Virus record (IMG/VR): IMGVR_UViG_3300032233_003207
Coordinates: 16,683-80,682 of that record
Strand: one strand, 5' to 3'
DNA length: 64,000 nucleotides
DNA from: a virus
Taxonomy: Duplodnaviria > Caudoviricetes
The translations under genes and the position numbers were made by a program. Positions 28,370-61,297 of the stretch are shown in pieces. Position 1 is the stretch's first letter, and each line of letters begins with the position of its first letter. Under the pieces are notes generated by a model. The model did no database searches. It was not told the DNA's origin and saw nothing but the letters and a program-made list of their open reading frames with translations.

Positions 28370-31300
28370 TTAACCGTTATTTTTAATTTTTTGATCAGGT
28401 GGAAGAGGTTTTACTTCAATCCAACAATCTACTATATATGAGAATAATGCATTGCGCAACTTATCTCTTTCTTTTTTAATTTTTTTAGGACTGTTAGTAT
28501 CAGAAGAGTTTTGCTGCTCAGAATCATTGGGGGCAGTAGATGAGCTTATTTCAGAACTATATTTTTGATTAATATTTCTAGTAAAATCCCAAGCTTTTTG
28601 AGATGGAGATCTATTATCTTTTTCTGATGAAATATCTACAGCTAAAACTGAAATAGATTTTGCTGGTAAAGGAGTGAATTTAGTTTGACCTATTTGCTTA
28701 AATTGTACAGCAGAATCTACTGGAAATTGTGATAAAATTGTTTTTATATAATTTGCAAAAGAATCTAATTTATCATTTACTTTACCTAATTTGCCATCAT
28801 AATAAATTCTTATTGCAACAGAAGCTTCTATATTATTTCCTATACTGCTATTTTTATTTACAATGTAAGCTGCTCTTTGAGATAACTCTAATATTGTTTT
28901 AGAATTTGATGGTCCATAAGATTGTCCATTTATTGATGATTCATTATTAAAATTGTCTGATGGTTGATTAGAATTTGGATCAAAAATTATACAGCCTATA
29001 TTGGTCTCATTAAATGAGCTAGTATGCCTTTCAACTCTAAACTCAGAAGCCTGACTATTATTATATAATAATTTACCTATAATATCTGATGTAGTAGGAA
29101 CGTACTCTCCTGGAGCACGACCATATGATAAATTTAAAGTTGTAGTAAAGTTGCTTCCTTCACCATAATTATGACTAACTGAAGTTACATAAAATAATAA
29201 CCCTCTGTTTTCTAAATAGACTACTTCTCCAGGTTGCATATATTCATTGCCAATAATTGTTACGTTTCCTCTTAATATATCCTTTCTAGCCATATTAAGC
29301 AAAGATACTGCATATGGAGCACATTGCACTTCAGGATTTGATAAAAATGGAGCTTTAACAGTAGCTGGCTCATGCCATCCATAATTTCTCCATAGATCAT
29401 AATCTATTGCAATTGCTGATACCATACCGTTACCACCTTGTGGAAAGCTTGCCAATCCTTGAGGTAGTCCACCAGGACTATATTGATTGAGTACTCCTTG
29501 TACTTCTACATAGGTATGTGATGGTGGATTTTCTTGTATTCTATAGCTTAAAATTTGACTATTTTTAATAATATATCTTTTTCCTGATCCTGGACCGTAA
29601 TCATCATAACTCTCATCCTCAATCATATGCTCAAACACTTCTGGAACTTCATTATTTCCATATGTTCCAGAAGTTAAAATATCATTTGCAACTGATTGAT
29701 CATTGTCTAATGATGAAAATTCTGCTGAATTTTTTAAAGTAGAATAAAATAATTTAATTACTTTATGTCTTTCTGATAATTTAGATGCTAAATCTTGAGT
29801 TATTTTAAATAAATCTATATATTTTGTATTAACTTTAATATTAGGAAAATTTTCTGCATTTTCTTTATTTATAAAAATATAACTATCTTTTCCTATTTTT
29901 TGTCCAGACTTATCTTCAATTCTACGAACTAATTGCTGTATATATGCATCAGACTTTTCATCTCTTGTTGAAAAATTTGAAATATTTATAAGTTGACCAT
30001 TTACTGTAGATTGTTTAGTTTGTAAATTTTTTGATATAGAATCAATAGTAGATTTAATAAAATTATATCTTTGATAATTACTAAATATATCTCTAGTATT
30101 ATTAGATTGTTCATCTATTACAGAAAATAATGGTGAAGATTTTGCATTAGGCATAGCTTGTGCTTTTAATGTGTCTAAATTTGCAATTACACCTGTACTA
30201 TCAGAAATAAATTTAAATGCTGTTCCTTGATTATCAAAACCAGAAAGGAAATTTTGAGCATCTGTATCATCAATTTTATCAATAAAAGCGCAATCTAATC
30301 TTATTTGATCTTCTATTATTTCTAATCTGTCTCTTAATGCAGATAATTTATTTTCAAACAAATTATTTAAAAAGTCAGGAAATACTTGTATTCCAAGAGT
30401 TTTCTTTTGGTACATCATTTTGTAAAAAATAGAACTTGGCATTCTATTATATTGTGGCATTCTAGCTCTAATATGACCTTGAGTATCACAGAAAACTTCT
30501 AAGTTTAATACTTGTGCTGCTGATAAAACTTTACTTTTAACATCCATATATTGATTATTATATAATCTAATAGACTCAAGCTCAGAGGTAAAAGCTCTGA
30601 TATCATAATCTTTATCATAAGAGTCATCTACAATAAACAAATTTTTATCTTCATTAGCTCTAACATTATATGACATTCTTCTAGTTATATAATTAAGCTG
30701 TCTTCTTAAACTTCTACGAGTTAATGGAGATGCCAGCTTTCCTTGTTCTGTTTTTGGATCAAGAAACTCATCAAAATCAAATGAAATATCATCTCCATTT
30801 TGTACAAAAAAAGATTTATTTTCATCTCTTAAATTTTTTAATAGTCCTTCAATTTCACTATTTAAACTTGTTAGTTTATTCGCAACTTTTACTTGATTTT
30901 CTTGGTTTACTTGTTTATTAAGAGCTTGAAGAGTGTCATCAGCAAAAGTTAATCCAGATATAGCTGCATCTAGTTGTAATTGAGTAAGCTCTTGTAATTT
31001 ACTTTCTAAATTTTTACTATTATTTATTATAGAATTTAATGCTATTTGTGCTCCAGCATAAGAAGATTCATTCATAATTAAATTTTTAAAAGGTATAAAA
31101 TTACCCCAAAGAGCATTAGATTTTTTTAAATCATCTCTTAAAAGAGCATAAAAAGATAATGAAGCATTTTGATTAGAATCTTTATCATTAGTAATCGCAT
31201 CTGCTCCATTAGTTGCTCTATAATAAGTAGCATAATTATATGGATATCCTGTAATTAATAAAGAAATTGCATTCATTACATCTTGTCCAGCAAATGGATC

Positions 31301-38317: not shown

Positions 38318-41065
38318 TTATATTTGACCTAAAGCAACTTTAATGTAAATGAAGTTTACTGGATAAGTTGGCTGTACGCGAACTGTGATATTCCATTGTC
38401 TTGGGTCTACACCATCTCTCTTGACTACCAAGTCTGCAAAGTTGCTAATTATTCCTTGAGAAACTAAAGCGTTTAATAGTATTACTGCACGAGTATTTAA
38501 GATTGCAGATGTATCTGGAGTTTCTGCCAATCCAATGAATCCTGCAAATCCTGCTCTTAAAGATTTGGCAACACGATCTCTGATAAATACTACAGAAATT
38601 TCTTGTTCTTCTGGATATCCGCTTTGAGAAGTTGTAATACCCCAAACAACTCTTCCGCCACCAGATACAGGTTGTAATGTAGTTACACCTGCTGAAGCTA
38701 AGCTTTCTAAAGTAGATGTAGAGAACTGTCTATTTCTTAATATTGTAAATCCACTTAAAACTTTATTAGTTAATGGGTTTTCAATTCTTAAATCTGCTGA
38801 TTCATATCCTGCTGCAGCTGCTGCTAAATAGAAACCATCAACTAGTACATTATCTGCTCCTGCTTGTACTACTATTTGATCAGGATAGAAATATACACAT
38901 CTATAAGTATTACCGAATGCATCTGGTACAGAATAGTTTGCTAAGTCTTCAATATTTCCAGATAATACTTCAGTAATATTATCGCCTTGAATTCCTTCTA
39001 AAATTCCAATATTTTCTACTGCTGCTGGCTTAGCACCTGTTAAATTATCAGGTGTTAATCCGGAAATTGCACCAGCAAACAATACTCTTTCTTTTTTGTT
39101 TCTAATATTGCTCATTGCTTTGCAATGATTTAAAGCATTTTGGAAAATTACAGAAATTGTTTGACGAGGAAGTGGGACTAGAATATCGCATTCAACTTTT
39201 TCTAATGATGCTAATGCATTGAGCCATCCAGCGTCATAGAAAGATGCTTCCTTGGTATCAATTAAAGTTACTCTTAATCCATATCCGGCTGGCACTACAT
39301 TCTTATTAATAACTAAGTAGTTGCTAAGATCTGAAGGATCTAATACTTCATAACGCATATCATTTTCTTGAACAATTACCATTTGTAATGTTAAAGTTTT
39401 TGTCATGCTGTCATATGAAGTTATATCATATAATCCATCATTACCATTAGCGGAGCCGTTTATCTTAAGTCTTCTAGTTAAAATGCTAGTAATTGTATCA
39501 AAATCAACCGCTGTGCTAGTAAATGTAGCTGTAGATGTAGATAATAAAGCAGTTAAAGCACCATCAGTTCCTTCTCCTCCTGATAATGGTAACCCTGTAG
39601 CAACATCAATTAATTGGAAAGTAACGCTAGATTCAGTAACAAAATCAGCTAATGAATTTTTAGTGACAGATAACTTGCCACCAGATACACCTGTAATAGT
39701 ATATTCGCCAATATTTCCTTTATTGACAGAATCAATTATTTTTAGTGTCTTTCCAACATATGAAGAATCAAAAGACATTGATGAACTAAATACGCCCTTA
39801 TTATAGAAGGCTAAGTTTCTACCAATATATCCATCAAATCCAGTGTCAATAGTAGCTTCTGTTTGTTTGATTGTATAGTAGTAAGAATATCCTCCAGGAG
39901 CAGGAGTATCATCAAATATAAAGTCATAAGTTGTTGGATAGCCTGCAGTATCTAAAGTATAATATTCTAATTTATTTGGCAAAATTTGACTTTCTAAATT
40001 AGTACTATTATTTTTGATAAAGAAGTGAATTGCTGAATTAAAATCAGGAGTTACGCTTGGTGGCAATGGGAAAATAAAATCATCTTCATTTGCTGAATCG
40101 CTATTAACTGCATCTGCTAATAAGAATGATTTTCTTCTTGGAACAGAAGGGGCAGCTTGTACAGATAATAAAGCTGGTGCATTATTTGCAAATGCTAATT
40201 GAGCGCCTAATGAAAGATTATTTGTTAAGCTAGGGTAACCATGTCTAGCAACAACATCATTCATCCCTTGTAATAGTACAGGATCATTTAAGAATCCTGA
40301 TGGTATATAATTTGCTGTTAAACTATCATTTTGTACTAAGACTCCGCTTGAAACTTTAACAGTAAATCCATCGCCTTCTCTAAATACAACTGCACTGTCA
40401 AAAATTGCAAATTCTAAAATTCCGTTACTTACAGTTTGTCCATTAGATATCCAAACAATTGGATTTCCATTTGCATCTAATTTTGCTCCAGAAACAGAAC
40501 CAAAAGCTAAAAATTTAGCTGTACCTGTAATTGGTTGATTTAATGCATTTCTTTGTACAGAAACACATCTAATAGACCATGTTTCTGGTGGTGCATTAGA
40601 ATCTAATAAACTAAGACTGCTAATATAGCCGTCTCCAACATTTGTAGATAAAGGTAAATATAAACTTCCGCCTTGATCAACAATATATCCTTTTTGTAAT
40701 TCTATTCTACCAGTATCTATGTCAATTCTATAATCATATTTACTACTAAAAGGATTGCCATCAATTAAAGCTTCTAAACCAACTAAAGGTATACCATTTT
40801 TAAATAATGTTGTTCTGTTTGATATTACAGGAAAATTAGTTAATTGAAAATGTCTTCCGTCTGATCCACTAGTAGATGAATAGCTTGAATTCAAACCGTC
40901 ACTTCCGCCACCAACTGCCTGAGCAACAAGAACCTCATCAGTCGAACCTTCCCCTATCATTGCAGTTAATCTAATACCGCCTGGAACAGCTACTCCTCTA
41001 GATTGAGTAACAATATCGGTAAAAACTCCTGGTAGTACATTATTTGCGCCTGGTATATTAGCCAT
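38318..41065 (-). CDS. Contractile tail sheath protein
   Basis: N-terminal VLPGVFTDIV and C-terminal ESLASAGVTTL...RVVWGITT...EISVVFIRDRV...WNITVRVQPTYPVNFIYIKV are hallmark sheath motifs. Confidence 0.92.
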   Translation of the reverse strand: MANIPGANNVLPGVFTDIVTQSRGVAVPGGIRLTAMIGEGSTDEVLVAQAVGGGSDGLNSSYSSTSGSDGRHFQLTNFPVISNRTTLFKNGIPLVGLEALIDGNPFSSKYDYRIDIDTGRIELQKGYIVDQGGSLYLPLSTNVGDGYISSLSLLDSNAPPETWSIRCVSVQRNALNQPITGTAKFLAFGSVSGAKLDANGNPIVWISNGQTVSNGILEFAIFDSAVVFREGDGFTVKVSSGVLVQNDSLTANYIPSGFLNDPVLLQGMNDVVARHGYPSLTNNLSLGAQLAFANNAPALLSVQAAPSVPRRKSFLLADAVNSDSANEDDFIFPLPPSVTPDFNSAIHFFIKNNSTNLESQILPNKLEYYTLDTAGYPTTYDFIFDDTPAPGGYSYYYTIKQTEATIDTGFDGYIGRNLAFYNKGVFSSSMSFDSSYVGKTLKIIDSVNKGNIGEYTITGVSGGKLSVTKNSLADFVTESSVTFQLIDVATGLPLSGGEGTDGALTALLSTSTATFTSTAVDFDTITSILTRRLKINGSANGNDGLYDITSYDSMTKTLTLQMVIVQENDMRYEVLDPSDLSNYLVINKNVVPAGYGLRVTLIDTKEASFYDAGWLNALASLEKVECDILVPLPRQTISVIFQNALNHCKAMSNIRNKKERVLFAGAISGLTPDNLTGAKPAAVENIGILEGIQGDNITEVLSGNIEDLANYSVPDAFGNTYRCVYFYPDQIVVQAGADNVLVDGFYLAAAAAGYESADLRIENPLTNKVLSGFTILRNRQFSTSTLESLASAGVTTLQPVSGGGRVVWGITTSQSGYPEEQEISVVFIRDRVAKSLRAGFAGFIGLAETPDTSAILNTRAVILLNALVSQGIISNFADLVVKRDGVDPRQWNITVRVQPTYPVNFIYIKVALGQI

Positions 41066-42031: not shown

Positions 42032-45000
42032 TTACCATCTATATCTAATAGATATTGGGGATATTCCTATTGTTAAATTTGTTCCAGCTATTTTTTTAAC
42101 AGATATTTCTACAGATAATGTGAATGGATATCTATAATTAACTGTATAAAATGGAACTAAATTTCCAAATCCTGGACCCCCTGTTGCAGGATTAATTCCA
42201 GTAAAATCTATATTTTTTATAATAGTTGAAGATGTAGAATTTAATTCTGCAGAAGAAATAAATAAATATGGTGTAGAATTAACAAGATCATCTGGAACTT
42301 TTTGATCTAAATCAAGGTCTGCTAAATAGTCTAAATTAGTATAAGTTAATCCTGATCTGTCCGATGTTTGCATAGTATCTATAAAGTATTTATTAATATT
42401 TAATTTAACTCCTCTATTAGACGCTGAAGCATCTGTATCATTACCAAATGAACGAACGCCCATTTCAGCTTTCAAAATTTTTACATTATTTGGTAAATAT
42501 GCATTTAAACTTTGCTGAAAACCTACTTGTCTTAATTCTGGAGGATCTACCGAGTCAGTTACTCTAAGAACAATTGATTTAAAATTTCCAGTAAGATTGT
42601 ATACAGAAGTTACTTTCCATAAAGGCGTTGTAGAATATATTAAAGAATTATCTGAATAACTACCTGTAGTTAATGGAACTAATATATATCCTGTTTGATT
42701 TATATTTCTTTCAACTATCCATGTTCCAGGTACAGTATAACTAGGCATTGACCATTCAAAAAGTCCTGATTCTATTTCAGAATTTCCACTTAAATATGCA
42801 CTATCAAAGAAATTATCTGTAATTTCACCATAAGATCCTAAACCGTCCCAAAATGGAAGATTGAAGCTATTAAATCTTACATAAGATGATATAGAATTAC
42901 CTTCTCTATAAACTTTATTATTTTTAACTATATTGGTTTTACCTCCAACAATAATTAAATCACTATATAATAGTCCAGAATCACCAAAATTATATAGTCC
43001 TTTAAAAATATTATTTGTAATAATAGAAGATGCAGTAGTGCAAATATAGCCTTGTATATATTTATATGTATAAGGTGTTGAATTTGTTTGTAGCCAATAT
43101 CCAGTAGAAGTAGTATTTCCTGAAATAATGCAAGAAGCGTCATTTCCTTCTCCTGGAGCCTGAGTATTTGGTATTGCTTTTCTGTTAGAAAATACAGTTA
43201 TAGCATATGCTGGCGAAAGAGATTTTACTAAAGTGTTATCATATGGTTCCAAATAACCTGTATAATATGCAGTTAAAGAGTTATTTAATATTTTTAATGA
43301 ACTATTTTCTTCAAAAGTAATTGCAGTGTGAATCCAATTACATATATTATTTTCAATAACAACATTTCCAGATGGATAAGCGCATGTATTTACAGTTTGA
43401 CCAGCTACCAATTTTATTGGTAAATAATATTTTCCATTATGATCAGTGCTCATAATGTTGTGGCAATTATTTCCGCTAATTATTAAACTAGAATCTTTAT
43501 CAGATAAAGAAGTATCATTTGGGAATAAATCAATTACTTTAGAAGACGATCCTACCCAATAACCAATAGATCCGCAAGTATTATTTTCAATTATGCATTT
43601 TTCAGTAACCAAACCAGGGTAAGACATAGAATCTCCCCTTAATACTGATGTTAATACAATTCCTTGATTTTTACCGAAATAATTATTTTTTATATTAATG
43701 TTTTTTAATAAAGGCTGTTGTTGATTGCTTGAGCTTTGAGCAGATGTATTTATAATTGAAATAGCAGATCGAATATCTCTATCAGTCTTTCTGATATTTT
43801 TAAACTTACAATTAGTAATATTAACATTACTCAATATAGATGTATTACTTGATAATTCAAAATTAATAAAACTAAATCTGTTAGATATAACAAAAACAGT
43901 ATCAATTGGATCGTGTATAAATTCAACATTATCAATTATAATATTGTCTAATGAAGTATTAATTTTTGAATAAATAACTGCTCGACCATTATTAACTAAA
44001 TTATTAACATCATAAGTTACAGCTGAAAGTCCATCTGAAGTATTTAAATAGTCTGTAACATTATCAAATGTATCTGGACTAGCAACTAATGGATTATAAC
44101 TAGTTTTAATATATGAATCTTTTAAAACTAATCCATCTGATAATGTATTTCTAATACATTGTGCAAAGTTGCCTTCAAATATGCAGCTAGTTAATTTAAC
44201 ACTAGGACTATTTTTTATTATGAACATAGTTCCCGGAACATATCCGTCATTTGGATCTACGTTAAAATCTAATGTTATTTTTGTATCATTAACTATAAAT
44301 TTATTCGCACTATCTAATAAGAATAAAGCTCCGCTGGTTGCATTAAATTTAAATCCAACATCTAATATACAGTCATCAAATTTAATGTTATTCGATTTCT
44401 TTACATTAAAAATAACATTGTTATCTGATATTGAATCTGCCAATTCATTTGTAATAACAATATGACAGTTTTCAAATATTATATTTGAAGAATTTTCTTT
44501 TACAAAAATTTTATTCTTAAAAAGAAGATTAATATTTCTAAATGTAATATTTGATCCAAATGTTACAGGTTTATTAAAAGTAATGATTGCATCATTTTGA
44601 CCATCAATAACTACATTGGAAATAAAATCTAAAGTAATTGGCTTTGCAATTATTCCATAACCTTCTGAAGATCCTTTAACAATTGCAGTGCCATTATATA
44701 AATTATTATATTTAATCCAATTAAATATTGATTCAATATTTTGAAAATTTCCTTGAGAACCAAAATTTGCTAGTTTAAGATCAAAATTGTTATCTAAATC
44801 ATTTACAAATCTTCTAGCATCAGTAATGCTTAAAGATATTGATAAAGGAGATTGTACAACGGTTGAAGATACAACATATAATAATGTTAAATTCTTTTTA
44901 TTATTTATAATATTTGAAAAAGTTGTAGCTTCTAAATTATAAGATAATCCATTTGCAGGATTATATGCTCTAAATAATCTATTTGAAGTTCCTGGCGTAC

Positions 45001-48000
45001 CAGCCTCAACATCTAACATTGGTATTGGTTGGTATTCTCCACGATCATTTATACAGAGAGCCCAATTAATATTATAGTAAACAGATGAATAAGATGAATA
45101 TACTTCTTGTATAATTGGAATAACAACTGTTTGTTTATTTACTTGAATGAATTTTCCATTAACTAATGCTACACCACCATTTATATAAATTTGATTGCTA
45201 TTTGGATTTACTCCTGTAGTTTGTAAATCAAATCCTCTAATTACACCATTTGCATGTAATAATTTTTCACCAGTAGAAATATAATTTAAAGCTGAGGTTC
45301 CTAAATCTTTTTCTCCTATATTTCCAAATGCTCTTTCATCTTTAATATTAGTAACTTTTTTAGTTATATCATCAAGTTGACAAGTTGCAATTAACATTAT
45401 TTCATTATCTAATGATAATGTTGGAAATAATTGGAAGTCTAGAGCTTGATTATTAAATGCGGATACTGTAACATTTGCATCAAATAAAATATCAATATAA
45501 TCAATATTTGACTCATCATAAAATCTAGTAATTTCGCCCACTCTACCTTGTGTGATTGGTCCTAAATTATTAGTTCCAACTCCATCATAATAGCATAAGT
45601 ATCCTACATATGTTCCATATGAGGTGAATTGAGTAATATAAAGAGAAATTTTATTTACATTTCCAAATTGATATCCTCTTAATTTTGGAGACACTCTAAC
45701 TATATTTAATTTGTTTAATTCAGAATATGTATATAATGGAACAGAGCCATTAATATTTATAGTAGAAGAGCTTGCATTTATTCTTGCTCTTTCATGAGTA
45801 AATGTTTCTCCATTTTGATTTATTAATACCTCAAAATGTCTCTTAAATGGTGATACTATAGATAAATCTGTTGCACTTTCTTTATTAAAAGAAATAGAAC
45901 TATAGTCTAAATAAATTGCTACTTCTGATCCGATATCTAAAGTAGTTGTAGGAGATACTGCATTTGCATGTACAGCATCATATACAGTAATATCAGTAAA
46001 ATCAACTGAACCACATGAAGAATTTATTGATTGGATAATAAATCTTCCAAAATTTACAAGACCGCCTGAATTTACTTTTTGTATAACAATAGTTTTTCCT
46101 ACTGCTAAACCAGAAGTAGATAAATCTAATGGAATTCTATATGTAACTTCAACTCTTCCTACTGGTACAGGTCCTGGATAAATATTTTTATCATAAATTG
46201 TGCCAAGCCAATATCCATCTCCATATTTATCTTGAATTTGGTTTTTATCTAAACCAAATTTTTCTATTTCAAATCCATTTACATAAAAATTATTTCTCTT
46301 AAGTGGAATAAATATTTTTGTAGGAGTTTGAGATGCGTCTGCTGTATCATAACTTGCAGAATATGGAGGGCTTGCTAAATTTGCTTTGGTTGGACCAAAT
46401 CCAAGAGGATCTAAAGGTAAAAGCGATGTAGCTGAAGTTAAACCAACTATATTTTTAGGAAATGCTATTGCAGTTGCTGAAGTATTATAAGAACCATTAG
46501 ATCCAATAATTCCACTTAATATTGAAAAAGATGTATTATTATATGAATCTGCTAATGCAATACCAAATTCTCCTTGATATTGAAATGCTACAAATCTATA
46601 ATTAAATCCTGAAGCTCTAAATGCATTATTTGTTGATTCAATTATTGATTCTAATGTATATTTTCCAGGAGTTGCGCCTGCATTACCAGTTATATCTATA
46701 CCTGGTAATATAGTATATCCATCAGCAGGATTTCCTGTAGGATATAATGCTAAATATAAAACATAATGCTCTGAATCTATTAGATCAGGATTAAATCCAA
46801 TACCTAAAGCTGAAGCTGATCTTGCATTAACTGCAATAAGGCTTGGTATTTCAGAAAAATTATTATTTGCAGCTGCAACTGCTAAAGCTGCATATTTATT
46901 ATTATTTAATAATGGTTTATCAATTCTTGCACTTGCAGTAGTAGAATACTTTAAATTTTTTCCTTCAATTCTAACTGAATATTTTTTATTACCAGAAGTT
47001 TGAACATATTTTTTTTCTTTTATAATATGAGAAATTTCAACGCCATCATAATTAATTCTAATGATATCGCCAACTTTAACTAATGCAAATTTAGCATCAA
47101 ATGAATTTGATGACATATCTGAACTAGATGGTTTGAATTCAACAATATCATCACCAGTATTAATATCATCAAAAGGAGATGAATTATTTCCAATATTTAA
47201 TAAATATGTAGTTACTTGAGTTGAAGGAACTATTTCTTGACCATATCCATCAACTACTAAATTTGCAGATCTTGATTCTCTAGATATTCCATTAGAAAAT
47301 AAATTTTGTATTCTTGTGCCTAACAAAAATATACTTGCACTATCTATATAATTTGCAAATTTTTGTAAATCATTTGCAGTCTGAGGTATTGTAGAAAATC
47401 TATCAGTATCTATAAATATACCACTAGATAAGTGAGCATATGAAGATGGATATGATGAAGTTCCATTATTAGTTGTAATAGAGCTTACTGTTTCAGTAGC
47501 ATATCCATCAGCAAATTGATGATAAAGTAATTCATTGTTTAATTCTGTAAGAGCAGTAAATGCATTTGAATTATCTCTAAAATTTTTAAACTTATCTTTA
47601 AATCCTAAAGCTGGATTATCTGTTACAGCAATTTGCGATAATGTATGTACGAAAGCAAATCCTAATAAATGAGGATCTAATTTAGAGCCAGTAGAAGATA
47701 TCCATCCTAAACTAGTATTAACATCTGCTGATAAATCTTTTATATAATTAAATAAATCAGATGTTCTGTAATCTAATTTTAATTTAGATTCTTGAATCTC
47801 TGCACTGCTTGATATTTGTGCGTTTGTAATTGGTAAAGTTACTAACCCTAATCCAGTTATAGCGGAAGGCTTAATTGTACCATCTAAATTTAGAGATATT
47901 CCAATTCTATTTGCAACTGACCCTGTAGTTCCATCTGCTCCTAAACCTAAATATTGTTCAATATTAAATACAGCATCTCTGACTGCATTAATAGCCTCTG

Positions 48001-48076
48001 CTCCAATTTCTGTTAAATTGTCATTTACAAAGGGCAATGTAACATCATCATCAAAATTTGAAGGAAATTTACTCAT
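42032..48076 (-). CDS. 2014-aa fibre/appendage protein with right-handed parallel beta-helix region
   Basis: Repeated Asn-ladder rungs (IIFENC, IKFDDC, IENNTC, ISGNNC, IENNIC, ISGNTT, ITNNIF, VKNNKV, ITDNFF) in the C-terminal half. Confidence 0.6.
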   Translation of the reverse strand: MSKFPSNFDDDVTLPFVNDNLTEIGAEAINAVRDAVFNIEQYLGLGADGTTGSVANRIGISLNLDGTIKPSAITGLGLVTLPITNAQISSSAEIQESKLKLDYRTSDLFNYIKDLSADVNTSLGWISSTGSKLDPHLLGFAFVHTLSQIAVTDNPALGFKDKFKNFRDNSNAFTALTELNNELLYHQFADGYATETVSSITTNNGTSSYPSSYAHLSSGIFIDTDRFSTIPQTANDLQKFANYIDSASIFLLGTRIQNLFSNGISRESRSANLVVDGYGQEIVPSTQVTTYLLNIGNNSSPFDDINTGDDIVEFKPSSSDMSSNSFDAKFALVKVGDIIRINYDGVEISHIIKEKKYVQTSGNKKYSVRIEGKNLKYSTTASARIDKPLLNNNKYAALAVAAANNNFSEIPSLIAVNARSASALGIGFNPDLIDSEHYVLYLALYPTGNPADGYTILPGIDITGNAGATPGKYTLESIIESTNNAFRASGFNYRFVAFQYQGEFGIALADSYNNTSFSILSGIIGSNGSYNTSATAIAFPKNIVGLTSATSLLPLDPLGFGPTKANLASPPYSASYDTADASQTPTKIFIPLKRNNFYVNGFEIEKFGLDKNQIQDKYGDGYWLGTIYDKNIYPGPVPVGRVEVTYRIPLDLSTSGLAVGKTIVIQKVNSGGLVNFGRFIIQSINSSCGSVDFTDITVYDAVHANAVSPTTTLDIGSEVAIYLDYSSISFNKESATDLSIVSPFKRHFEVLINQNGETFTHERARINASSSTININGSVPLYTYSELNKLNIVRVSPKLRGYQFGNVNKISLYITQFTSYGTYVGYLCYYDGVGTNNLGPITQGRVGEITRFYDESNIDYIDILFDANVTVSAFNNQALDFQLFPTLSLDNEIMLIATCQLDDITKKVTNIKDERAFGNIGEKDLGTSALNYISTGEKLLHANGVIRGFDLQTTGVNPNSNQIYINGGVALVNGKFIQVNKQTVVIPIIQEVYSSYSSVYYNINWALCINDRGEYQPIPMLDVEAGTPGTSNRLFRAYNPANGLSYNLEATTFSNIINNKKNLTLLYVVSSTVVQSPLSISLSITDARRFVNDLDNNFDLKLANFGSQGNFQNIESIFNWIKYNNLYNGTAIVKGSSEGYGIIAKPITLDFISNVVIDGQNDAIITFNKPVTFGSNITFRNINLLFKNKIFVKENSSNIIFENCHIVITNELADSISDNNVIFNVKKSNNIKFDDCILDVGFKFNATSGALFLLDSANKFIVNDTKITLDFNVDPNDGYVPGTMFIIKNSPSVKLTSCIFEGNFAQCIRNTLSDGLVLKDSYIKTSYNPLVASPDTFDNVTDYLNTSDGLSAVTYDVNNLVNNGRAVIYSKINTSLDNIIIDNVEFIHDPIDTVFVISNRFSFINFELSSNTSILSNVNITNCKFKNIRKTDRDIRSAISIINTSAQSSSNQQQPLLKNINIKNNYFGKNQGIVLTSVLRGDSMSYPGLVTEKCIIENNTCGSIGYWVGSSSKVIDLFPNDTSLSDKDSSLIISGNNCHNIMSTDHNGKYYLPIKLVAGQTVNTCAYPSGNVVIENNICNWIHTAITFEENSSLKILNNSLTAYYTGYLEPYDNTLVKSLSPAYAITVFSNRKAIPNTQAPGEGNDASCIISGNTTSTGYWLQTNSTPYTYKYIQGYICTTASSIITNNIFKGLYNFGDSGLLYSDLIIVGGKTNIVKNNKVYREGNSISSYVRFNSFNLPFWDGLGSYGEITDNFFDSAYLSGNSEIESGLFEWSMPSYTVPGTWIVERNINQTGYILVPLTTGSYSDNSLIYSTTPLWKVTSVYNLTGNFKSIVLRVTDSVDPPELRQVGFQQSLNAYLPNNVKILKAEMGVRSFGNDTDASASNRGVKLNINKYFIDTMQTSDRSGLTYTNLDYLADLDLDQKVPDDLVNSTPYLFISSAELNSTSSTIIKNIDFTGINPATGGPGFGNLVPFYTVNYRYPFTLSVEISVKKIAGTNLTIGISPISIRYRW

Positions 48077-52143: not shown

Positions 52144-52980
52144 ATGAGATTAAAACATGTTAAAAAAATTTTTGATAAAGATTTTCAAATAAAAATTATA
52201 GAAAGTTACTTATTAAATAAGTCAATTAGAAAAGTTTCAAATATTTTTAATATAACTACCAGGCAAGTAACTAGCATACTAAATGATAATAATATTGAGC
52301 ATTCTAAAATAAGAAAAAATATACTTGATGAAGAATATTTTAAAAAATATAACGATGATATAATAGGGCGTGATGTAATGTATTGGGCTGGTTTCATTGC
52401 AGCTGATGGAAACGTAATGAATAAGTCATCATCTAGATCTTATAATATGACAGTTAATTTGTCAATAAAAGATATTAATCATTTAGAAAAGTTAAAAAAT
52501 AGTTTAAAATCTACATCTAAATTAAGAATTTATAATAATAAAGGTGGCGTAAGATTTAATAAAATATTTAAAGATACAACTGGATGCTCAATATCTTTTG
52601 CCTCTAAATATCTTGTAAATTCTTTGGAAAAATTTAATATAATTCCTGCAAAATCTAAAATATATAGCATAACCAAATGCTTATACAATCATAAATTTAT
52701 TAATCATTTTATTAGAGGATACATGGATGAGGACGGAGGAGTATTATTTAACGATAAATATAAAAGAGTATATTTTTATGGGACAAAAGAGTGTTTAAAT
52801 GGAATATCTGAAATTATACTGAAAAGTTGTAATATAATAAAAAAAGCAGTATCAAATAATAGAAGCATTTATTCAATTCAATATAATGGCAAAGATGCCA
52901 TTAATTTAGTAAAGTGGATGTATAAAGATTCTAGTATTTATTTAGAAAGAAAATATAATTGTATAAGAGGATTATTGTGA
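52144..52980 (+). CDS. LAGLIDADG homing endonuclease with N-terminal HTH
   Basis: YWAGFIAADG and HFIRGYMDEDG motifs; C-terminal WMYKDSSIYLERKY. Confidence 0.85.
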   Translation: MRLKHVKKIFDKDFQIKIIESYLLNKSIRKVSNIFNITTRQVTSILNDNNIEHSKIRKNILDEEYFKKYNDDIIGRDVMYWAGFIAADGNVMNKSSSRSYNMTVNLSIKDINHLEKLKNSLKSTSKLRIYNNKGGVRFNKIFKDTTGCSISFASKYLVNSLEKFNIIPAKSKIYSITKCLYNHKFINHFIRGYMDEDGGVLFNDKYKRVYFYGTKECLNGISEIILKSCNIIKKAVSNNRSIYSIQYNGKDAINLVKWMYKDSSIYLERKYNCIRGLL

Positions 52981-55773
52981 TTCCCGGCAAGAGTAAGTTA
53001 TCTCCCAAATATTTAATACAGGGGTTTTCTTTTTATCATTTGATACTGTAAATGTTACTTCTAGTTCTAAAAACTTTTTCTGCGCATCTAATTGCCCTAA
53101 TTCTTTATATAAGTCTATGGGGCATGGACTAGGACCCGTTAGCAAGCAATCTTGTAAATTAGAATTTGATTTGGTAGAAATACTTATCCAATTAGATAAG
53201 GATAAATCATTTTTTGTATTTGCACTTCTTATTCTAAAAGAAATTTCCGTACCTTCAGGAGTAGTTGCTTCCCATGTAAAAAATCCCCATTGTGGTGTCA
53301 TGTTACTATCACAACTAGTTTCGTATGTTTCTATTTTTACAGTATTTGAATAATTACCTGGACAATTAGGAGGATAATCACATACTTTATCATAAAAGAA
53401 TCCCCAGTTGTCTTCTTGAAAACATTCATCTTTATTATGGCTTGCATTTGTAGATGGATTAACTACGATTTCATCATTATTAACCACATTACAACTAGAC
53501 ACATTAATACATTCTCCTGGAGGAATTGCCTGATTAGTATAACAATATTTTGCTCCTGGCAAACTATTTGAATTAGTACCAAAATAGCCAGAACCATTTG
53601 GCATAATTGCTATTGGAATACCAGATGGAGCTTCTTTGGAGCCAGTATTACAGATTGGAATGTTATTTTTACAAGTAAGCCCCACTCCTAACTCAAATGA
53701 ATCACATTTTTTATCAAAATTTGGAGCTTCCCATTCTACACACTCTCCAGCACCTTTCTTTACTCCATCACAATAATTGTGACATGTATCGTGGACTGCA
53801 TTGATACATGTGGCATCCCAGTCGCCCTTCCAACTCATCGGGCACTGGCCAGGATCGTACTCCTTGTACTGGTCCACGCAGTGTTGGTCCCAGAGGCCAT
53901 CGTAGCTCTTCTCGCAGTCGTAGTAGATCCAGCCGTAGATGGGGTCGTCCCAGCAATTCTCCTGGAGTTCCCACCAGCACTCGTAGACCTGCTCCCACCA
54001 GCACTCGTAGACGGTCTCCCAGTACCAACCGCAGTCGTACCGGTACTCCTGGTCCCACCAACATTCGTAGGTGTAGACGTACTGCTGGTCCCACCAGCAC
54101 TCGTAGAGGTACGTGTAAACGTTCTCCCACCAGCACTCGTAGACGTACACCTGCTCCCACCAGCACTCGTACAGGTACGTGTAGACGTCTTCCCACCAGC
54201 ACTCATAGAGGTAGGTGTAAACGTCCTCCCACCAGCAGCCGTAGGTGTAGACGTTCTCCCACCAACACTCATACAGGTAGGTGTAAACGTCCTCCCACCA
54301 GCATTCGTAGACGTACTGTTGCTCCCACCAGCACTCGTAGAGGTAGGTGTAGACGTCTTCCCACCAGCAGTCGTAAACGTACTCCTGCTCCCACCAACAT
54401 TCGTAGGTGTAGACGTACTGCTGCTCCCACCAGCAGTTGTAGCCGTAGTAGCAGCCCCACCAGTCGCAGATCCACGTCCAGCCGCAGACGTAGTTTTGGA
54501 TCCAAGTCCAGCGCCAGCCGCAGACGTAGGTCTGTCGCCAACGCCAGCCGCAGAAGTACGTGTACACGTAGCGCCAACGCCAGCCGCAGAGGTAAACCTC
54601 TTTCCAACGCCAGCCGCAGAAGTACGTATAAATGTAACGCCAGCGCCAGCCGCAGATGTACGTGTAAACGTAGTACCAGCCGCAGATGTACGTGTAGATG
54701 TAACGCCAGCGCCAGCCGCAGATGTACGTGTAGATGTAACGCCAGCGCCAGCCACAGAGGTAGTACTCGATCCAACGCCAACCGCAGAGGTACGTGTAGA
54801 CGTACGTCCAGTGCCAGCCGCAGAGGTAGACCTGTACCCAAGTCCAGTGCCAGCCGCAGTAGTAGACGTTTACCCAGTGCCAGCCGCACGAGTAGTTCTC
54901 GATGTCGTGCCAGCCGCAGGTGTAGATCTCGTTCCAGCCGCAAACGTAGGTATCGACCCACTCACAGACGGTCTGGTAGTCGATGATGTCCCAGTAGCTG
55001 CAGACGTCCCACTCGGTGTAGGGGCAGCAGGTTTTGTCCCAGTCGCAAACCTTCGTGACCGTCGAATCGCAATCCTTGGTGAGACCCTTGTCGTAGGTGA
55101 GGCAAGGTTCGGTCTCGCAGGTGCCCTCGTACTTCTTTTCACAACATTGAGGTTTTTCTTCACAAATTTTATCAACACACTTGGTTTCGCATCCTTTAAT
55201 TAAGCCTTCGCCTTTGGTACAAATATCATGAGAACAACTTCCTTGAGCCGGATCTTGGCATTTCTGGTTCTGATGACACTGTGAGCCATGCGTGCAAGGC
55301 TCTTTTGCGGCTCCATTATTATTAGCTGTATCTATACTACTTTTAGGATCTGCAGACCATTTCCAATTCCACTTACAAAAAGATCCGTCTGCATCCCAAC
55401 TACCATCTTCAACCCATTTACTACAAAATATGTCACATGGGTTATTTTCACAAGTTTTTTCTTCTGTTAATGATAGTGGTTTACCATCATCAGATGGTAC
55501 TTTAGTTATTTCTTCACCATCTGTGCAATCAGACCAAATATTATTTATACAATATTGAATTCCAACAAAACAAGTTAATACGCCATTTTGCCGACCAATA
55601 GTTAAATGACATGATTTTTTATCACCATTATCACAATAGTTATCTACGTTTTCATTGCCACCTGAATTATTGAATATTACTTCATCCGAAGATCTTTCAG
55701 AACTTTGTGCACAGGATGCAATTAAAAAAGTAAATAAAATAAAAAATAAATAAAATATTTTATTTCTATTCAT
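52972..55773 (-). CDS. Cysteine-rich lipoprotein with nested Cys modules and a mirror-symmetric Cys/Trp/Tyr ladder
   Basis: Signal peptide II MNRNK-hydrophobic-LIAS/C; Cys-rich modules; 36-Cys repeat core; beta-sandwich-like C-terminus ending TPVLNIWEITYSC. This is the only frame open across both AT-rich flanks and the GC-rich core. Confidence 0.85.
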   Translation of the reverse strand: MNRNKIFYLFFILFTFLIASCAQSSERSSDEVIFNNSGGNENVDNYCDNGDKKSCHLTIGRQNGVLTCFVGIQYCINNIWSDCTDGEEITKVPSDDGKPLSLTEEKTCENNPCDIFCSKWVEDGSWDADGSFCKWNWKWSADPKSSIDTANNNGAAKEPCTHGSQCHQNQKCQDPAQGSCSHDICTKGEGLIKGCETKCVDKICEEKPQCCEKKYEGTCETEPCLTYDKGLTKDCDSTVTKVCDWDKTCCPYTEWDVCSYWDIIDYQTVCEWVDTYVCGWNEIYTCGWHDIENYSCGWHWVNVYYCGWHWTWVQVYLCGWHWTYVYTYLCGWRWIEYYLCGWRWRYIYTYICGWRWRYIYTYICGWYYVYTYICGWRWRYIYTYFCGWRWKEVYLCGWRWRYVYTYFCGWRWRQTYVCGWRWTWIQNYVCGWTWICDWWGCYYGYNCWWEQQYVYTYECWWEQEYVYDCWWEDVYTYLYECWWEQQYVYECWWEDVYTYLYECWWENVYTYGCWWEDVYTYLYECWWEDVYTYLYECWWEQVYVYECWWENVYTYLYECWWDQQYVYTYECWWDQEYRYDCGWYWETVYECWWEQVYECWWELQENCWDDPIYGWIYYDCEKSYDGLWDQHCVDQYKEYDPGQCPMSWKGDWDATCINAVHDTCHNYCDGVKKGAGECVEWEAPNFDKKCDSFELGVGLTCKNNIPICNTGSKEAPSGIPIAIMPNGSGYFGTNSNSLPGAKYCYTNQAIPPGECINVSSCNVVNNDEIVVNPSTNASHNKDECFQEDNWGFFYDKVCDYPPNCPGNYSNTVKIETYETSCDSNMTPQWGFFTWEATTPEGTEISFRIRSANTKNDLSLSNWISISTKSNSNLQDCLLTGPSPCPIDLYKELGQLDAQKKFLELEVTFTVSNDKKKTPVLNIWEITYSCRESQ
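53815..55136. other. High-GC in-frame insert within an AT-rich gene
   Basis: Sampled line 54181-54240 has 34/60 G+C (57%) versus 19/60 in flank line 53041-53100. Codons switch abruptly to C/G-ending (TGC, TAC, GAG) between CC-EK (55141) and WDAT (~53818). Confidence 0.9.
53914..55002 (-). repeat. Tandem 24-36 nt coding repeats: CGW(R/H)W..Y.Y arm and CWWE..Y.YE arm
   Basis: 18 Cys per arm around the CDWWGC turn at 54451-54468; near-identical 36-nt tandem copies at 54685-54720 and 54721-54756. Confidence 0.95.
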
Positions 55774-56069: not shown

Positions 56070-56390
56070 TTATATAATAAGTGACAATAACTCATTCAAT
56101 TCAGATTGAGTAAGATTTTGTCCAGATTTTAATTTTGATTTTAATTCAATTATTCTATTTTCTTTAGCAGTATTTGCTGCTTGCTCTAGCTCTACTTCAA
56201 CTTTGTGAGCCTCATCATTTGCTATTTCTAATTCAGATGGATATAACAAAGTTTGTAAATATATTCCATTTTTATTTACAATTGCACACCATTCCCCCCT
56301 GTCATTATCAATATGACATCTATCTCCAATAATACTAGAAATGACTGATGGAGGATTGCAATTACAATTTTTATAAGTCATTTTAACCAA
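56070..56390 (-). CDS. Small hypothetical protein, possible fibre assembly chaperone
   Basis: 106 aa coupled to the collagen-fibre gene; C-terminal helical [17 protein letters not shown]. Confidence 0.5.
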
Positions 56391-58494
56391 CTCTTAGTTT
56401 ATATAGATGAGCTTCTGTACCTGCAGGCCAACCTGTAGATACTGAAGAGTACATATCTATTGATGTAATATTGGTAGTTGTATCTGTCCATCTACCGGTT
56501 CCTGTTAGTCCAACTAATGTACCAACGCTATCATAAGAAAAATTTAAATTCATAAATCTATAAGTTCCTGTTGCAGCTATAATTGTCATCTCTCCTGAAA
56601 AGTAGGTAGAAGATGCCCACGATCCACCAAGCCCCCAGTTAGAATAATTAGCTACTCCATGTTGACCAGCCGAGTTACTATACCAAAAATGATGAGTTTG
56701 ACTAAATCCTGATGTAAGTCCATTTGGTCTAATTTCATAAGAAGTAGATGACGCTATAGGTCCTCTTCTAAAAAACATTTTATATATTTTATCTGAGTTT
56801 CCATTGAGATTTGAAAAAGTAAGAGTTTGAGTAGCGGTTGTTACATACTTGCTTTCAATTAAAATAAAATCTGACGTACCACTTGCTGCACCTGTTGCAG
56901 AAATAGTAAGTGTAGAGCCCGCTCCGCCATCAGTGAGAGATATTCCACTACCTGCAGTCAATACTCTTTCATTAGTTAAATTTGCATTCGTACTCAATAA
57001 TAAATAAGAGGCATCTGTTGGCGCTCCTGCGTTTCCCTGGGTACCTTGAGAGCCTGTAGCCCCTTGAGTTCCTTGACTTCCTGTAGAACCTGTGTGCCCT
57101 TGAGATCCTTGAGAACCTGTAGGTCCTAAAGTTCCTTGAGGTCCTGTATAGCCTGTAGATCCTTGAGACCCTGTAGCGCCTTGCCCTGTAGCGCCAGTGT
57201 AACCTTGAGCACCTTGTGGTCCCTGAGTGCCAGTATAACCCTGAGAGCCTTGAGGTCCTTGAGCCCCAGTATAACCTTGAGCGCCTTGAGCGCCTTGAGT
57301 TCCAGTGGCGCCTGTACGACCCTGAGAACCTTGAGGTCCTTGAGCCCCAGTATAACCTTGTGGTCCCTGATTACCAGTATATCCTTGAGAACCTTGAGGT
57401 CCTTGAGCCCCAGTATATCCTTGAGAACCTTGAGGTCCTTGACTTCCCGTATAACCTTGAGTGCCTTGAGTTCCTTCGGAACCCGTATAGCCCTGAGCGC
57501 CTTGAGCACCAGATGCTCCAGTAGCGCCCATATAACCTTGACTACCTTGAGAACCAGTGGCTCCAGTAGCTCCAGTATAACCTTGAGCACCTTGAGCACC
57601 TTGCGCACCTTGAGAACCAGTAGCTCCAATATAACCTTGACTACCTTGACTACCTTGACTACCTTGACTGCCTTGACTACCTTGACTGCCTTGAGGACCT
57701 ACTGGACCTGTAAAACCTTGAGCGCCTTGAGATCCTTGAGCGCCTTGTTGACCTTGAGGACCAACAGGACCTGTATAACCAGTAAAGCCTTGAGGTCCTA
57801 CAGGACCTGTATAACCAGTAGTACCTTGAGGACCAACAGGACCAGTAAAGCCTTGCGCTCCCTGTAAGCCTTGAGGACCTACTGGACCTGTAAAACCTTG
57901 AGCGCCTTGAGATCCTTGAGCGCCTTGTTGACCTTGAGGTCCAACAGGACCTGTATAACCAGTGGCTCCCTGTAAACCTTGTAGTCCTGTAGAGCCAGTA
58001 GGTCCTTGAAATCCTAATGGACCTGTATAACCGGTGGCGCCTTGTGCGCCTGTAGGTCCTGATGATCCTATAGCTCCTTGAGGTCCTGTAGCCCCTTGTA
58101 AACCTTGAGATCCTGTAGTTCCTTGAGAACCGCCTCCAGATATTTCATCTGTATACGCTAAATTTCTAACTGAACCTTCACTATAAATTTTTAATCTGCC
58201 AGTAGATATATCCATACCTACTTCACCAGATTGTGTTGGCGTAGAATTACTAGACCACTTTAATAAAGCGCCAGAATTATGATTTAATTCTATATTTCCA
58301 TGAACATTAATGTTATTTCCTTCTCTAGAAATATAAACATTTTCATCTCTATTATTTGAATTTTGTAAATAAACTCCAGCACACTCAATCATATCTTCTT
58401 GAGGCTCTATTGGAGTTGGATAAACTCTAGAATCAGCGGCATCACCACCATTAGCAGCAGATTCTACTTTTAATACTTGAACCCTATCAGTCAT
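56383..58494 (-). CDS. Collagen-like triple-helix fibre protein
   Basis: N-terminal anchor domain, 371-aa G-X-Y region and C-terminal beta-rich head domain. Confidence 0.88.
57019..58131 (-). repeat. Gly-X-Y collagen repeat, 123 triplets with one G-Q-G interruption
   Basis: Units [18 protein letters not shown]; interruption at 57181-57186; 9-nt microsatellite (GSQ)n around 57630-57690. Confidence 0.92.
57688..57963. repeat. 96-bp direct repeat (57688-57783 and 57868-57963), 1 mismatch
   Basis: Direct comparison of the two segments, offset 180 nt. Confidence 0.85.
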
Positions 58495-58618: not shown

Positions 58619-59491
58619 ATGCCTAAAAAAATAATATTTAATAAAGAAGAAATAGATAAAATTATAAATCTTTATAAGTCTGGAATTTCTTGTAAAGAAA
58701 TTGGCAAACAATTTAAGTGCTCTAAACAAGTTATAAATATTAATCTTAAAAATAATAATATTGTAATTCGTGATAATTCCCATGCACAACAAAAATACAC
58801 TATTAATGAAAATATTTTTTCAAAAATTGATAGTCAAGAAAAAGCTTACTGGCTTGGCATGTTAACAGGAGATGGCTGGATTACAGATCGAAATGAATTA
58901 GGATTATCTTTGCAGGAAAAAGATAAAAATCATATTTTTTTATTTAAAAATTTTTTAAGCTCTACTCATCCAATAAAAATAATAAATAATGGTATTAAAA
59001 AAAATGGCAATCCATCTATTTCTTATGAATTAAAATTAAGCAATAAAAAAATAGTTTTAGATTTAAAAAAATATGGATTTAGTAAAAATAAAACTAAATA
59101 TATAAAATTTCCAAATATAAATAAAAAATATTTAGCAAGCTACATGCTCGGTCTAATAGACAGTGATGGTAGTTTTTGTTTAAAATCACATTATAAAAAT
59201 AAAGATAAAAAATTATTATCTTTTAATTTTATTGGTCCTACTGAGTTTACAGAAACTTTTCAAAAATTATTAATTAATAATTGTAATATATCTAAAACAA
59301 AATTAGGAATTCAAAAAAATACTAATTTTGTTAGAACTGTAAATTATGGAGGCTATAAAAATATTTATAAAATAGTTAAGTTTCTTTACTCTGGCACAAA
59401 TATTTTTATGCAAAGAAAAAAAAGTATTGCTATTAAATACTTATTAGAAAAATACCCAAATGATCAGTGGTTACAAAGTCAATTATATTAA
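58619..59491 (+). CDS. LAGLIDADG homing endonuclease with N-terminal HTH
   Basis: YWLGMLTGDG and YMLGLIDSDG motifs; C-terminal FLYSGTNIFMQRKK. Confidence 0.85.
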   Translation: MPKKIIFNKEEIDKIINLYKSGISCKEIGKQFKCSKQVININLKNNNIVIRDNSHAQQKYTINENIFSKIDSQEKAYWLGMLTGDGWITDRNELGLSLQEKDKNHIFLFKNFLSSTHPIKIINNGIKKNGNPSISYELKLSNKKIVLDLKKYGFSKNKTKYIKFPNINKKYLASYMLGLIDSDGSFCLKSHYKNKDKKLLSFNFIGPTEFTETFQKLLINNCNISKTKLGIQKNTNFVRTVNYGGYKNIYKIVKFLYSGTNIFMQRKKSIAIKYLLEKYPNDQWLQSQLY

Positions 59492-60424: not shown

Positions 60425-61297
60425 ATGAGTAAAATTTTATTAAATTATCTCTCTAAAGAAATATTAGAATATGAATATAAAAACTGCGGTAGTATGCAAA
60501 AAGTAGCAGATAAATTAAAATTGTCTGTAGATACTATTTATAAATATATGAAACTTTATAATATTGAATATAATATTAATTATAAAGGATTATATAGTTG
60601 TAATGAAAGCTTTTTTAATTCAGGATCTCCAGAAAGTTTTTATTTAGCAGGTTTTATTGCTGCAGATGGCTCAGTACAATATAGAAAATATTCAAAAATA
60701 TTAAAAATAACTTTAGCTTTAAAAGATGAAAATCATTTAATAAAAATAAAAAATATTTTAAATAGCAGTCATCCTATAAAAAAATATTTAGTTAAACCAT
60801 CTAAATTAATTCAATCTGAGCATGAATGCGTAGAGCTACAAATAGCTAATAAAACCATAGTTGATAGTTTATTAAAATTTAATATTGTACCTAATAAAAC
60901 AAAAAAATATAATATTGCAGACTGGATTGTTGATCATCAATTTGTTAATCATTTTATTAGAGGATATTTTGATGGTGATGGCACAATAACATATTGCGGG
61001 CTGCCTAAAAATAGAAAAATAAAGCAATTAAATTTTAGTATTATAGGTACAGAAAAATTTATAAAACAATATAATGATATTTTATCAAAAAATTGCAAAA
61101 TAAATCCTGCAAAAGTTATAAACCACTATTCTATATATAAGATAAGTTTTAGTGGAAATAATGTAGTTAAAAAAATATATAATTTTCTATACCAAGATGC
61201 AAGTCTATATTTAGATAGAAAGAAAAATATATTTGATAATAATTATATTGCAACTGAAGCGCTAAAATTAGCAAATGGCGCAGAAACAATTATATGA
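60425..61297 (+). CDS. LAGLIDADG homing endonuclease with N-terminal HTH
   Basis: YLAGFIAADG and HFIRGYFDGDG motifs; C-terminal FLYQDASLYLDRKK. Confidence 0.87.
   Translation: MSKILLNYLSKEILEYEYKNCGSMQKVADKLKLSVDTIYKYMKLYNIEYNINYKGLYSCNESFFNSGSPESFYLAGFIAADGSVQYRKYSKILKITLALKDENHLIKIKNILNSSHPIKKYLVKPSKLIQSEHECVELQIANKTIVDSLLKFNIVPNKTKKYNIADWIVDHQFVNHFIRGYFDGDGTITYCGLPKNRKIKQLNFSIIGTEKFIKQYNDILSKNCKINPAKVINHYSIYKISFSGNNVVKKIYNFLYQDASLYLDRKKNIFDNNYIATEALKLANGAETII

Follow-up and report, generated by a model that had tools for sequence, protein, structure and literature searches.

The window analysed here is a 64,000-nt stretch (positions 16,683 to 80,682) of IMG/VR virus record IMGVR_UViG_3300032233_003207, which comes from an uncultured freshwater jumbo phage of 28% GC; the record is 80.7 kb long and about 19% complete. 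Its minus strand carries, at 52972..55773, an open reading frame (ORF) of 933 amino acids (aa) plus stop which its translation, its homologues and a precomputed PF26780 match identify as a DUF8252-family lipoprotein bearing a long cysteine (Cys) ladder. The protein begins with a signal peptide and lipobox read off the sequence (residues 1-21, ...LIAS-C21; 55711..55773), followed by an N-terminal Cys-rich body part (residues 47-257, 25 Cys; 55003..55635) that is conserved in 570 library hits and has a predicted local distance difference test score (pLDDT) mostly of 80-93 in AlphaFold2. Cys intervals then delimit the N side of the hairpin base (C258 to V269; 54967..55002). The N-arm (residues 270-435; 54469..54966) consists of 16 units of 6-12 residues, mostly of the CGW[RH]W type, and leads to the tip C436-D-W-W-G-C441 (54451..54468), a four-residue turn that would be closed by the first rung. 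The C-arm (residues 442-607; 53953..54450) returns in 16 units, mostly of the CWWE type, to the C side of the base (residues 608-620, a 13-residue unit; 53914..53952), and a C-terminal body part with predicted beta-sandwich domains (residues 621-933, 19 Cys; 52975..53913; pLDDT 80-97) completes the protein.

The signal peptide, MNRNKIFYLFFILFTFLIAS-C21, ends in a lipobox of the form [LVI][ASTVI][GAS]C, and a lipobox-like [LVIF][ASI][ASG]C was found in 11 of the 12 relatives checked. The ladder protein is thus most likely exported by the Sec pathway and lipid-anchored in the envelope. Its 81 Cys comprise one to be lipidated and 80 others, and the odd counts in the two body parts (25 and 19) fit a single body linked across the insertion. 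The ladder lies between the 'CC' and 'WD..C' halves of a repeated Cys-rich module, which argues for an insertion projecting from the body and not for a stalk under a head. The idea of a stalk carrying a head was therefore abandoned.

The original prediction described this region as a mirror-symmetric ladder of 36 Cys. Counted outward from the CDWWGC turn, which lies where it had been placed, the Cys intervals translated from both arms are 6,12,10,12,10,12,10,12,12,10,12,12,10,10,8,8, followed by 12 on the N-arm and 13 on the C-arm, exactly as listed in that prediction. All 16 matched intervals are even, as it had also claimed, so that every rung can sit on one face of a beta ribbon. Thirty-four Cys form 17 rungs in exact register (C270..C436 with C441..C607, i + j = 877), whereas the eighteenth pair, C258/C620, is offset by one residue; the proposed 36-Cys ladder therefore holds exactly for all but its outermost rung. 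Each arm has 167 residues in register, or 179 counting the offset pair, and at 0.33-0.34 nm per residue a ribbon of 167 residues would be about 55-57 nm long.

This arrangement is not readily obtained by chance. The interval multiset has 2,882,880 possible orders (or 1,716 when permutation is restricted to the thirteen 10s and 12s), the best of 200,000 trials with shuffled intervals gave 14 of 16 matches, and the direct, non-mirror order gives 8 of 16. A register scan showed that the mirror antiparallel register is the only one to pair all ladder Cys, with 17 C:C and 53 aromatic:aromatic pairs; C:C pairs numbered at most nine when the arms were slid antiparallel, 11 at the best parallel offset and nine for a 22-residue shift within an arm. 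The ladder DNA contains tandem repeats of 30, 36 and 66 nt (69-89% identity), and a 22-residue super-period is present in the protein. No inverted repeat was found when the ladder DNA was searched for one as the source of the symmetry. The symmetry is thus a property of protein spacing rather than of a DNA palindrome, in agreement with the claim of a palindrome at the protein level.

We then considered which residues would face each other. The Cys face of the mirror register has 84 pairs, among them 17 C:C, 29 W:Y, 15 Y:W, 6 Y:Y and no W:W. Such alternation of a Cys/aromatic face is what a beta strand would show if every rung occupied an equivalent site. On the other face the pairs are G:E, T:E, R:[TLV], I:V and [ILVF]:W. 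Net charge is +7 for residues 270-436 and -34 for residues 441-607, consistent with arms of opposite charge, but Arg does not directly face Glu; complementarity of charge is thus partial, and the charge-complementary face that had been proposed was overstated.

Close relatives were identified in phage contigs (L002, L003, L004, L010/L011 and L012) and in bacterial contigs of 62-68% GC (L005-L009), two of which are Polyangiaceae metagenome-assembled genomes (MAGs). Across phages and Polyangiaceae MAGs the relatives display at least eight other spacing patterns, each mirrored. The pattern 10,10,(12,10)x6,12,8 occurs in P0004, and L008, P0158 and P0169 have the same with one further 10,12 pair (a 22-residue double unit) per arm. 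L002 has 10,10,12,10,12,10,12,10,10,8,8. A phage '10-type' has 6,8,10xN,8,8, where N per arm is 5/5 in L004, P0177 and P0178, 6/6 in P0005, P0007, P0174, P0179, P0184 and P0185, and 7/7 in L003. P0191 and P0193 reproduce the irregular order of the window ladder, except for 10 in place of 6 beside the tip in both arms. More distant are P0009 (4,11,8x9,13, with another tip; flanks 39% identical), P0010 (8,8,12,6,6,6,6) and P0106 (4,8,8,6,6,8), which have independent mirror ladders of 8- or 6-residue units with tips such as CSWGWWGLEC and CPWWFC; the units of P0010 and P0106 are Lys-rich instead of Arg/Glu.

The mirror register is conserved through compensating changes. Among 12-mers, RWRYxYTY matches WWEDVYTYLYE across the rung and RWTWxQ matches WWEQQYVYTYE, while the Arg-less 10-mer CGW[RY]YxYTYx always stands opposite the Gly-ending CWWExVYTYG. 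Within the 10-type, Arg occupies C-position 6 in 10 of the 11 rungs that have Phe at N-position 8, and in 1 of the 32 others; on the face without Cys, these two positions would lie diagonally next to each other. Shuffling the C-units among rungs of the same length lowered the summed mutual information from an observed 18.3 to 11.8 +/- 0.9 for 10-mers and from 13.5 to 4.3 +/- 1.5 for 12-mers, and none of 500 shuffles was as high in either case. Between P0001 and P0193, substitutions were no more concentrated in particular rungs than chance predicts (4 rungs with changes in both arms, 3.7 expected). The rung-by-rung covariation corresponds, at the protein level, to the compensatory changes of an RNA helix and is the main support for a physical pairing of the arms.

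Mirror register and covariation would look alike if the N-arm of one chain paired with the C-arm of another, giving domain-swapped dimers or open-ended polymers. We judge such inter-chain pairing improbable: the first rung closes the four-residue turn C-DWWG-C, which close relatives conserve as C-x-[WF]-[WF]-x-C, a hairpin that starts to zip at a closed turn would have a kinetic advantage, and a lipid anchor on every chain would constrain the geometry.

Several observations weigh against pairing of the two arms within one long hairpin. The relatives share descent, hence the shuffle tests overstate independence. Structure prediction, which had been proposed as a check, allowed no conclusion about the ladder. 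With 36 aligned sequences AlphaFold2 modelled the N- and C-terminal parts of the full protein confidently (pLDDT 80-97), but the ladder received pLDDT 20-57 both there and in a 198-residue excerpt (residues 340-537, 6 sequences), and the N-arm was drawn, at low confidence, as short strands whose coordinates look like beta-helices. A complex prediction of N-arm 340-436 with C-arm 441-537, run without controls, gave no answer (score 0.00) and is neutral on pairing. Each arm could instead form a beta-solenoid or meander, with one strand or half-coil per 10-12-residue unit and with Cys bonded to neighbours of the same arm or stacked along the axis, so that the two solenoids need only be of similar length. 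The 22-residue super-period would suit such a fold, and the low-confidence coordinates of residues 280-450 align to the beta-helix proteins SufB/D, CAP C-terminal domain and curli CsgA (Z 8-12), but at a pLDDT of about 50 or less. A solenoid requires neither the mirrored 10/12 order nor the tip- and base-specific intervals nor the rung-specific matching of unit types, and the within-arm shift that it implies aligns about half as many Cys as the mirror register. We therefore regard it as quite improbable.

The arms are also unequal in some relatives. P0003 has four more units in its N-arm, P0006 has 6 vs 2 and P0187 9 vs 8; in one bacterial clade, the P0004 cluster, 10 of 13 full-length members are unequal (e.g. 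14/10, 16/18, 16/8), and the three with matched arms compare with 2.6 predicted by independence. Hence most relatives pass the mirror-matching test that had been suggested for homologues, but with exceptions. The unequal arrays for which DNA is available contain exact repeats of up to 60-107 nt, with 16-27% of 31-mers repeated, while ladders without repeated 31-mers (L002, L003, L004, L006) are matched in 4 of 4 cases. The extra units of P0003 lie within a 66-nt array with 94% matches. P0006 differs from the matched P0185, the same phage gene, by one 120-nt deletion between direct repeats and two other bases. Two separate records, P0158 and P0169, yielded 18/18, the largest form of the P0004 cluster. 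Given the long exact repeats and the P0006/P0185 deletion, repeat-collapse in assembly is the likelier cause of unequal arms. The inequality may alternatively be a real, tolerated length polymorphism in perfectly periodic arrays. The claim that the arms pair antiparallel in a single register with an aromatic face is thus supported by the other mirrored patterns and the co-varying unit types, and qualified by the unequal arms.

The same concern applies in principle to the window ladder, whose pattern or GC-rich middle could be an artefact of repeat mis-assembly or a phage/bacterial chimera. The repeat arrays of relatives do appear to be mis-assembled, and the window ladder itself contains a 42-nt exact repeat, with 4% of its 31-mers repeated. 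Its arm patterns were nevertheless recovered in independent per-run assemblies: contigs from two samples (X1 records 1 and 7; X2 records 9 and 10) bridge both GC junctions at even depth, and the X2 contigs each cover a whole arm. A separate ENA contig (P0002) has the same ladder pattern in a protein differing by 2 residues, and P0191/P0193 share the irregular pattern on another phage backbone. With two independent per-run assemblies and the ENA contig, the ladder pattern of the window is secure, and an artefact is highly improbable.

An observation that the original prediction did not contain is the codon usage of the ladder. GC content at third codon positions (GC3) is 0.82-0.94 within residues ~206-675 (53750..55156, minus strand) and 0.08-0.26 in the rest of the gene, and it is 0.09-0.15 in six neighbouring genes; a tract of GC3 ~0.9 is thus embedded in a gene and phage of GC3 ~0.1. 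Compared with the L012 gene, which lies on an unrelated phage backbone and has a longer GC3-rich tract (about residues 100-800), the tract shows 87-97% DNA identity and the flanks 54-71%. For Polyangiaceae genes the blastn alignment was limited to residues 158-702, with a codon-aligned identity of 82-83% over the ladder. The high identity of the tract to L012, the diverged flanks and the jump in GC3 show that the hairpin moves as a recombination cassette. The cassette carries high-GC codon usage, and homologous recombination has brought it into two or more phage lineages. Two interim readings were withdrawn: a GC-rich flank of the cassette in run X5, taken as bacterial, belongs to an L012-like phage gene and is not demonstrably from a bacterium, and pieces of an AT-codon ladder in run X4, first ascribed to a window-like phage whose ladder differed, come from an L003-like phage. 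In other frames of both strands (53768-55203) the ladder is overlapped by five long but spurious ORFs (102-474 aa; rich in Pro/Ala/Val/Arg/Ser/Thr), a by-product of the GC-rich repeat in an AT-rich genome.

A phmmer search with the window protein returned 570 library hits at E <= 1e-3; of these, 109 reached E <= 1e-30, and the alignments cover residues ~20-258 and ~620-933. Most members of the family lack a ladder and have vWA-like or C-type-lectin-like inserts instead. Precomputed PF26780 (DUF8252) hits cover the window's cluster and all close relatives, although some are weak or faint. Searches of Pfam (E <= 1, in a copy without the PF26780 model), NCBIfam and PHROGs with the ladder protein matched no family, and a literature search on DUF8252 found no paper that mentions it. 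The ladder is an insertion in a Cys-rich, beta-sandwich-bearing DUF8252 lipoprotein family of myxobacteria (Myxococcota). Structurally, VIA matches of modest weight relate residues 679-796 to CARDB-like or cell-surface domains (Z 7.8-8.7) and a segment assembled from residues 99-130 and 800-933 to a jelly-roll (Z 7-9.4), suggesting, with modest weight, that the modelled body holds beta-sandwich domains of a kind common in surface and carbohydrate-binding proteins. Foldseek of the full model against the PDB gave no match at E <= 1e-3, and a search of the ESM Atlas with P0007 no usable one.

In bacteria the ladder gene lies in a conserved cluster with the order FG-GAP/ASPIC, DsbA-like, two small genes, FG-GAP/ASPIC, ladder gene, DUF4215 Cys-rich protein, trypsin-like protease and DUF3105. 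The neighbourhood is conserved among L005, L006 and L007, with FG-GAP/ASPIC, a DsbA-like oxidoreductase, a DUF4215/myxo Cys-rich-repeat protein, a trypsin-like protease and DUF3105. We count the DsbA-like gene in favour of a disulfide ladder. No DsbA was found in the 80.7 kb of the phage record searched, which is about 19% of the genome.

The ladder gene is the only gene common to the window and the other phage loci. In L003, L004, L012 and the P0191 contig its neighbours are genes for adenylosuccinate synthetase, a cupin, DUF5824 and an M15 endolysin. A virion tail fibre or receptor-binding protein was considered and rejected, as the protein matches no PHROG family, carries an export signal and is encoded in other phages among metabolic and lysis genes. 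Together with the need of an oxidising compartment, these features point to a host-envelope protein rather than a part of the virion, for which the ladder protein is unlikely to serve as a fibre. On the 211-kb phage contig L004, a trypsin-like peptidase gene (651-1376) lies ~4.6 kb upstream of the ladder gene and recalls the trypsin gene adjoining the bacterial ladder gene, a likeness by kind of gene only.

The window around the ladder gene contains one long minus-strand gene array, including very large ORFs of 2376, 2014 and 1671 aa (10342-17472, 42032-48076 and 28370-33385); a Pfam search of the 2014-aa and 1671-aa ORFs gave no hit. A tail-sheath homologue of 915 aa (38318-41065, minus strand) matches sheath families only in its last ~300 residues and has a large N-terminal extension. 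A collagen-like tail fibre of 703 aa (56383-58494, minus strand; Pfam Collagen E 4.6e-59) matches many PHROG tail-fibre families, and its gene has a GC content of 0.44 from Gly/Pro codons, yet a GC3 of 0.15. Three plus-strand ORFs (52144-52980, 58619-59491 and 60425-61297) resemble LAGLIDADG homing endonucleases and have helix-turn-helix domains; they lie around the ladder and collagen genes and could promote local recombination. The first of them overlaps the 3' end of the ladder gene on the opposite strand by 9 nt (the stop and the last two sense codons).

The overall explanation that we favour, and consider reasonably probable, is a lipid-anchored DUF8252 protein with an inserted, cross-strand disulfide-laddered hairpin of ~55 nm. 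Its N- and C-terminal parts would jointly make up a membrane-tethered globular body, rich in disulfides and containing beta-sandwich domains, and the hairpin would project from a loop of one Cys-rich module. From the spacing we infer beta strands in which residues 270-436 run outward and 441-607 back, antiparallel and in the fixed register i + j = 877. Cys would face Cys every 6-12 residues, giving 17 cross-strand disulfides on the same face (18 with the offset C258/C620), between which cross-strand Trp:Tyr and Tyr:Tyr pairs would fill that face; the other would set Gly/Arg/Ile/Thr opposite Glu/Val/Leu/Thr/Trp. Together the strands would make a two-stranded ribbon, stiff and acidic, with an Asp-Trp-Trp-Gly turn exposed at its end. 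The original interpretation is partly supported, and the observation beneath it stands.

Such hairpins might not remain single. One face would be almost purely Cys/Trp/Tyr over about 55 nm and hence sticky in water, with Trp and Tyr making up 18% and 20% of the ladder, so that the aromatic faces could pack together or on other proteins in a di- or trimeric, multi-stranded fibre or a surface sheet. Trp-zipper peptides, whose face is similar, are soluble monomers, and the ladder's net charge of -27 would oppose self-association. We regard packing of this kind as unlikely.

Under the favoured explanation the phage copy would be a long-resident homologue of a Polyangiaceae surface lipoprotein, whose hairpin-coding tract was recently replaced through recombination with a high-GC allele. 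As to role, we can offer a guess, and a doubtful one, that the phage makes a host-envelope protein which mimics or replaces an antenna-like host surface protein, e.g. for receptor masking or phage exclusion. A bolder proposal, on which we are closely divided and lean slightly towards doubt, is that of a new class of fibrous protein: a ~55-nm single-chain, two-stranded ribbon built from two unlike, co-evolving arrays with 17-18 disulfides and an unbroken Trp/Tyr zipper, whose length-setting cassette is exchanged among myxobacterial hosts and several phage lineages, such that phages display the host's antenna or ruler.

If the design is as proposed, rod length would be genetically tunable in steps of ~3-4 nm. 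The arms may offer a model of how two repeat arrays keep register in evolution, and the ribbon could be used as a scaffold, a stiff nanorod that withstands proteases and heat and bears an aromatic stripe. With regard to phages, the gene is a case of a host surface-protein module that was copied to two or more phage backbones and renewed there through recombination. It provides a host link, to Polyangiaceae-like bacteria, for an uncultured jumbo phage of 28% GC, and suggests that mimicry of host surfaces by phages has a layer still to be explored.

Literature searches on the family, on cystine or disulfide ladders and on long beta-hairpins returned no description of such a protein. The nearest relatives in design are disulfide-stapled beta-hairpin peptides such as protegrins, tachyplesins, gomesin and arenicin (PMC13001179) and the theta-defensins, with their 'authentic cystine ladder' (PMC6327110). 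Like the proposed ladder, these have antiparallel strands and parallel cross-strand disulfides on one face. They are 17-25 residues long (up to about 40 for the class), with 2-3 rungs spaced by 2-4 residues, while the window ladder has 17-18 rungs spaced by 6-12 residues in 338 residues, comprises two different co-evolving arrays, lies inside a 933-aa lipoprotein and has no sequence relation to them. Green-alga HAP2 contains a cystine-ladder-like C0D0 loop of 37 residues with three parallel disulfides (PMC6327110). This resembles the window protein in that a disulfide-laddered hairpin is inserted in a loop of a larger extracellular protein, but it is EGF-like, non-repetitive and of unrelated sequence, and its three rungs span about 4 nm, compared with 17-18 rungs and about 55 nm.

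Trp zippers are designed hairpins with cross-strand Trp pairs at non-hydrogen-bonded sites. They share with the window ladder aromatic cross-strand pairs on one face, in phase with disulfide-accepting sites; the window ladder differs in being natural, about 14 times longer and paired as Trp:Tyr and Tyr:Tyr, with no W:W. The thrombospondin type-1 repeat, with its Cys-Trp-Arg layers (10.1101/779553, PMC6954052), is likewise antiparallel, thin and elongated, with disulfide caps and an abundance of Trp and Arg, but it is three-stranded, about 60 residues long and built on WxxW and RxR with interdigitated side chains. In the window ladder W-R-W-R residues alternate on opposite faces, and no TSP_1 hit was obtained (Pfam, E <= 1). 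A disulfide-braced beta-solenoid of the Tenebrio antifreeze type, with 12-residue coils and two Cys bonded within each coil, was rejected as a model, as the ladder has one Cys per 6-12-residue unit and the mirror order would be left unexplained.

The DUF8252 lipoproteins of Myxococcota share the N- and C-terminal body with the window protein, and most of them lack the ladder. T5 Llp and Cor are small (<100 aa) phage-encoded lipoproteins of the host envelope that block receptors. The window protein resembles these in general terms, its gene encoding a phage lipoprotein signal and lying here beside tail-fibre genes, with a proposed place in the host envelope, but no homology connects them. By analogy, the ladder would work like a cystine ladder, yet it belongs neither with the cystine-ladder peptides and HAP2 nor with the Trp zippers or thrombospondin repeats, none of which has more than three rungs, is repetitive or is related to it in sequence. 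The proposed giant disulfide-laddered hairpin is a design without a described counterpart. If the ribbon forms, no other natural beta-hairpin would come near it in length, and it would be the first fibrous protein to be based on a repeated cystine ladder.

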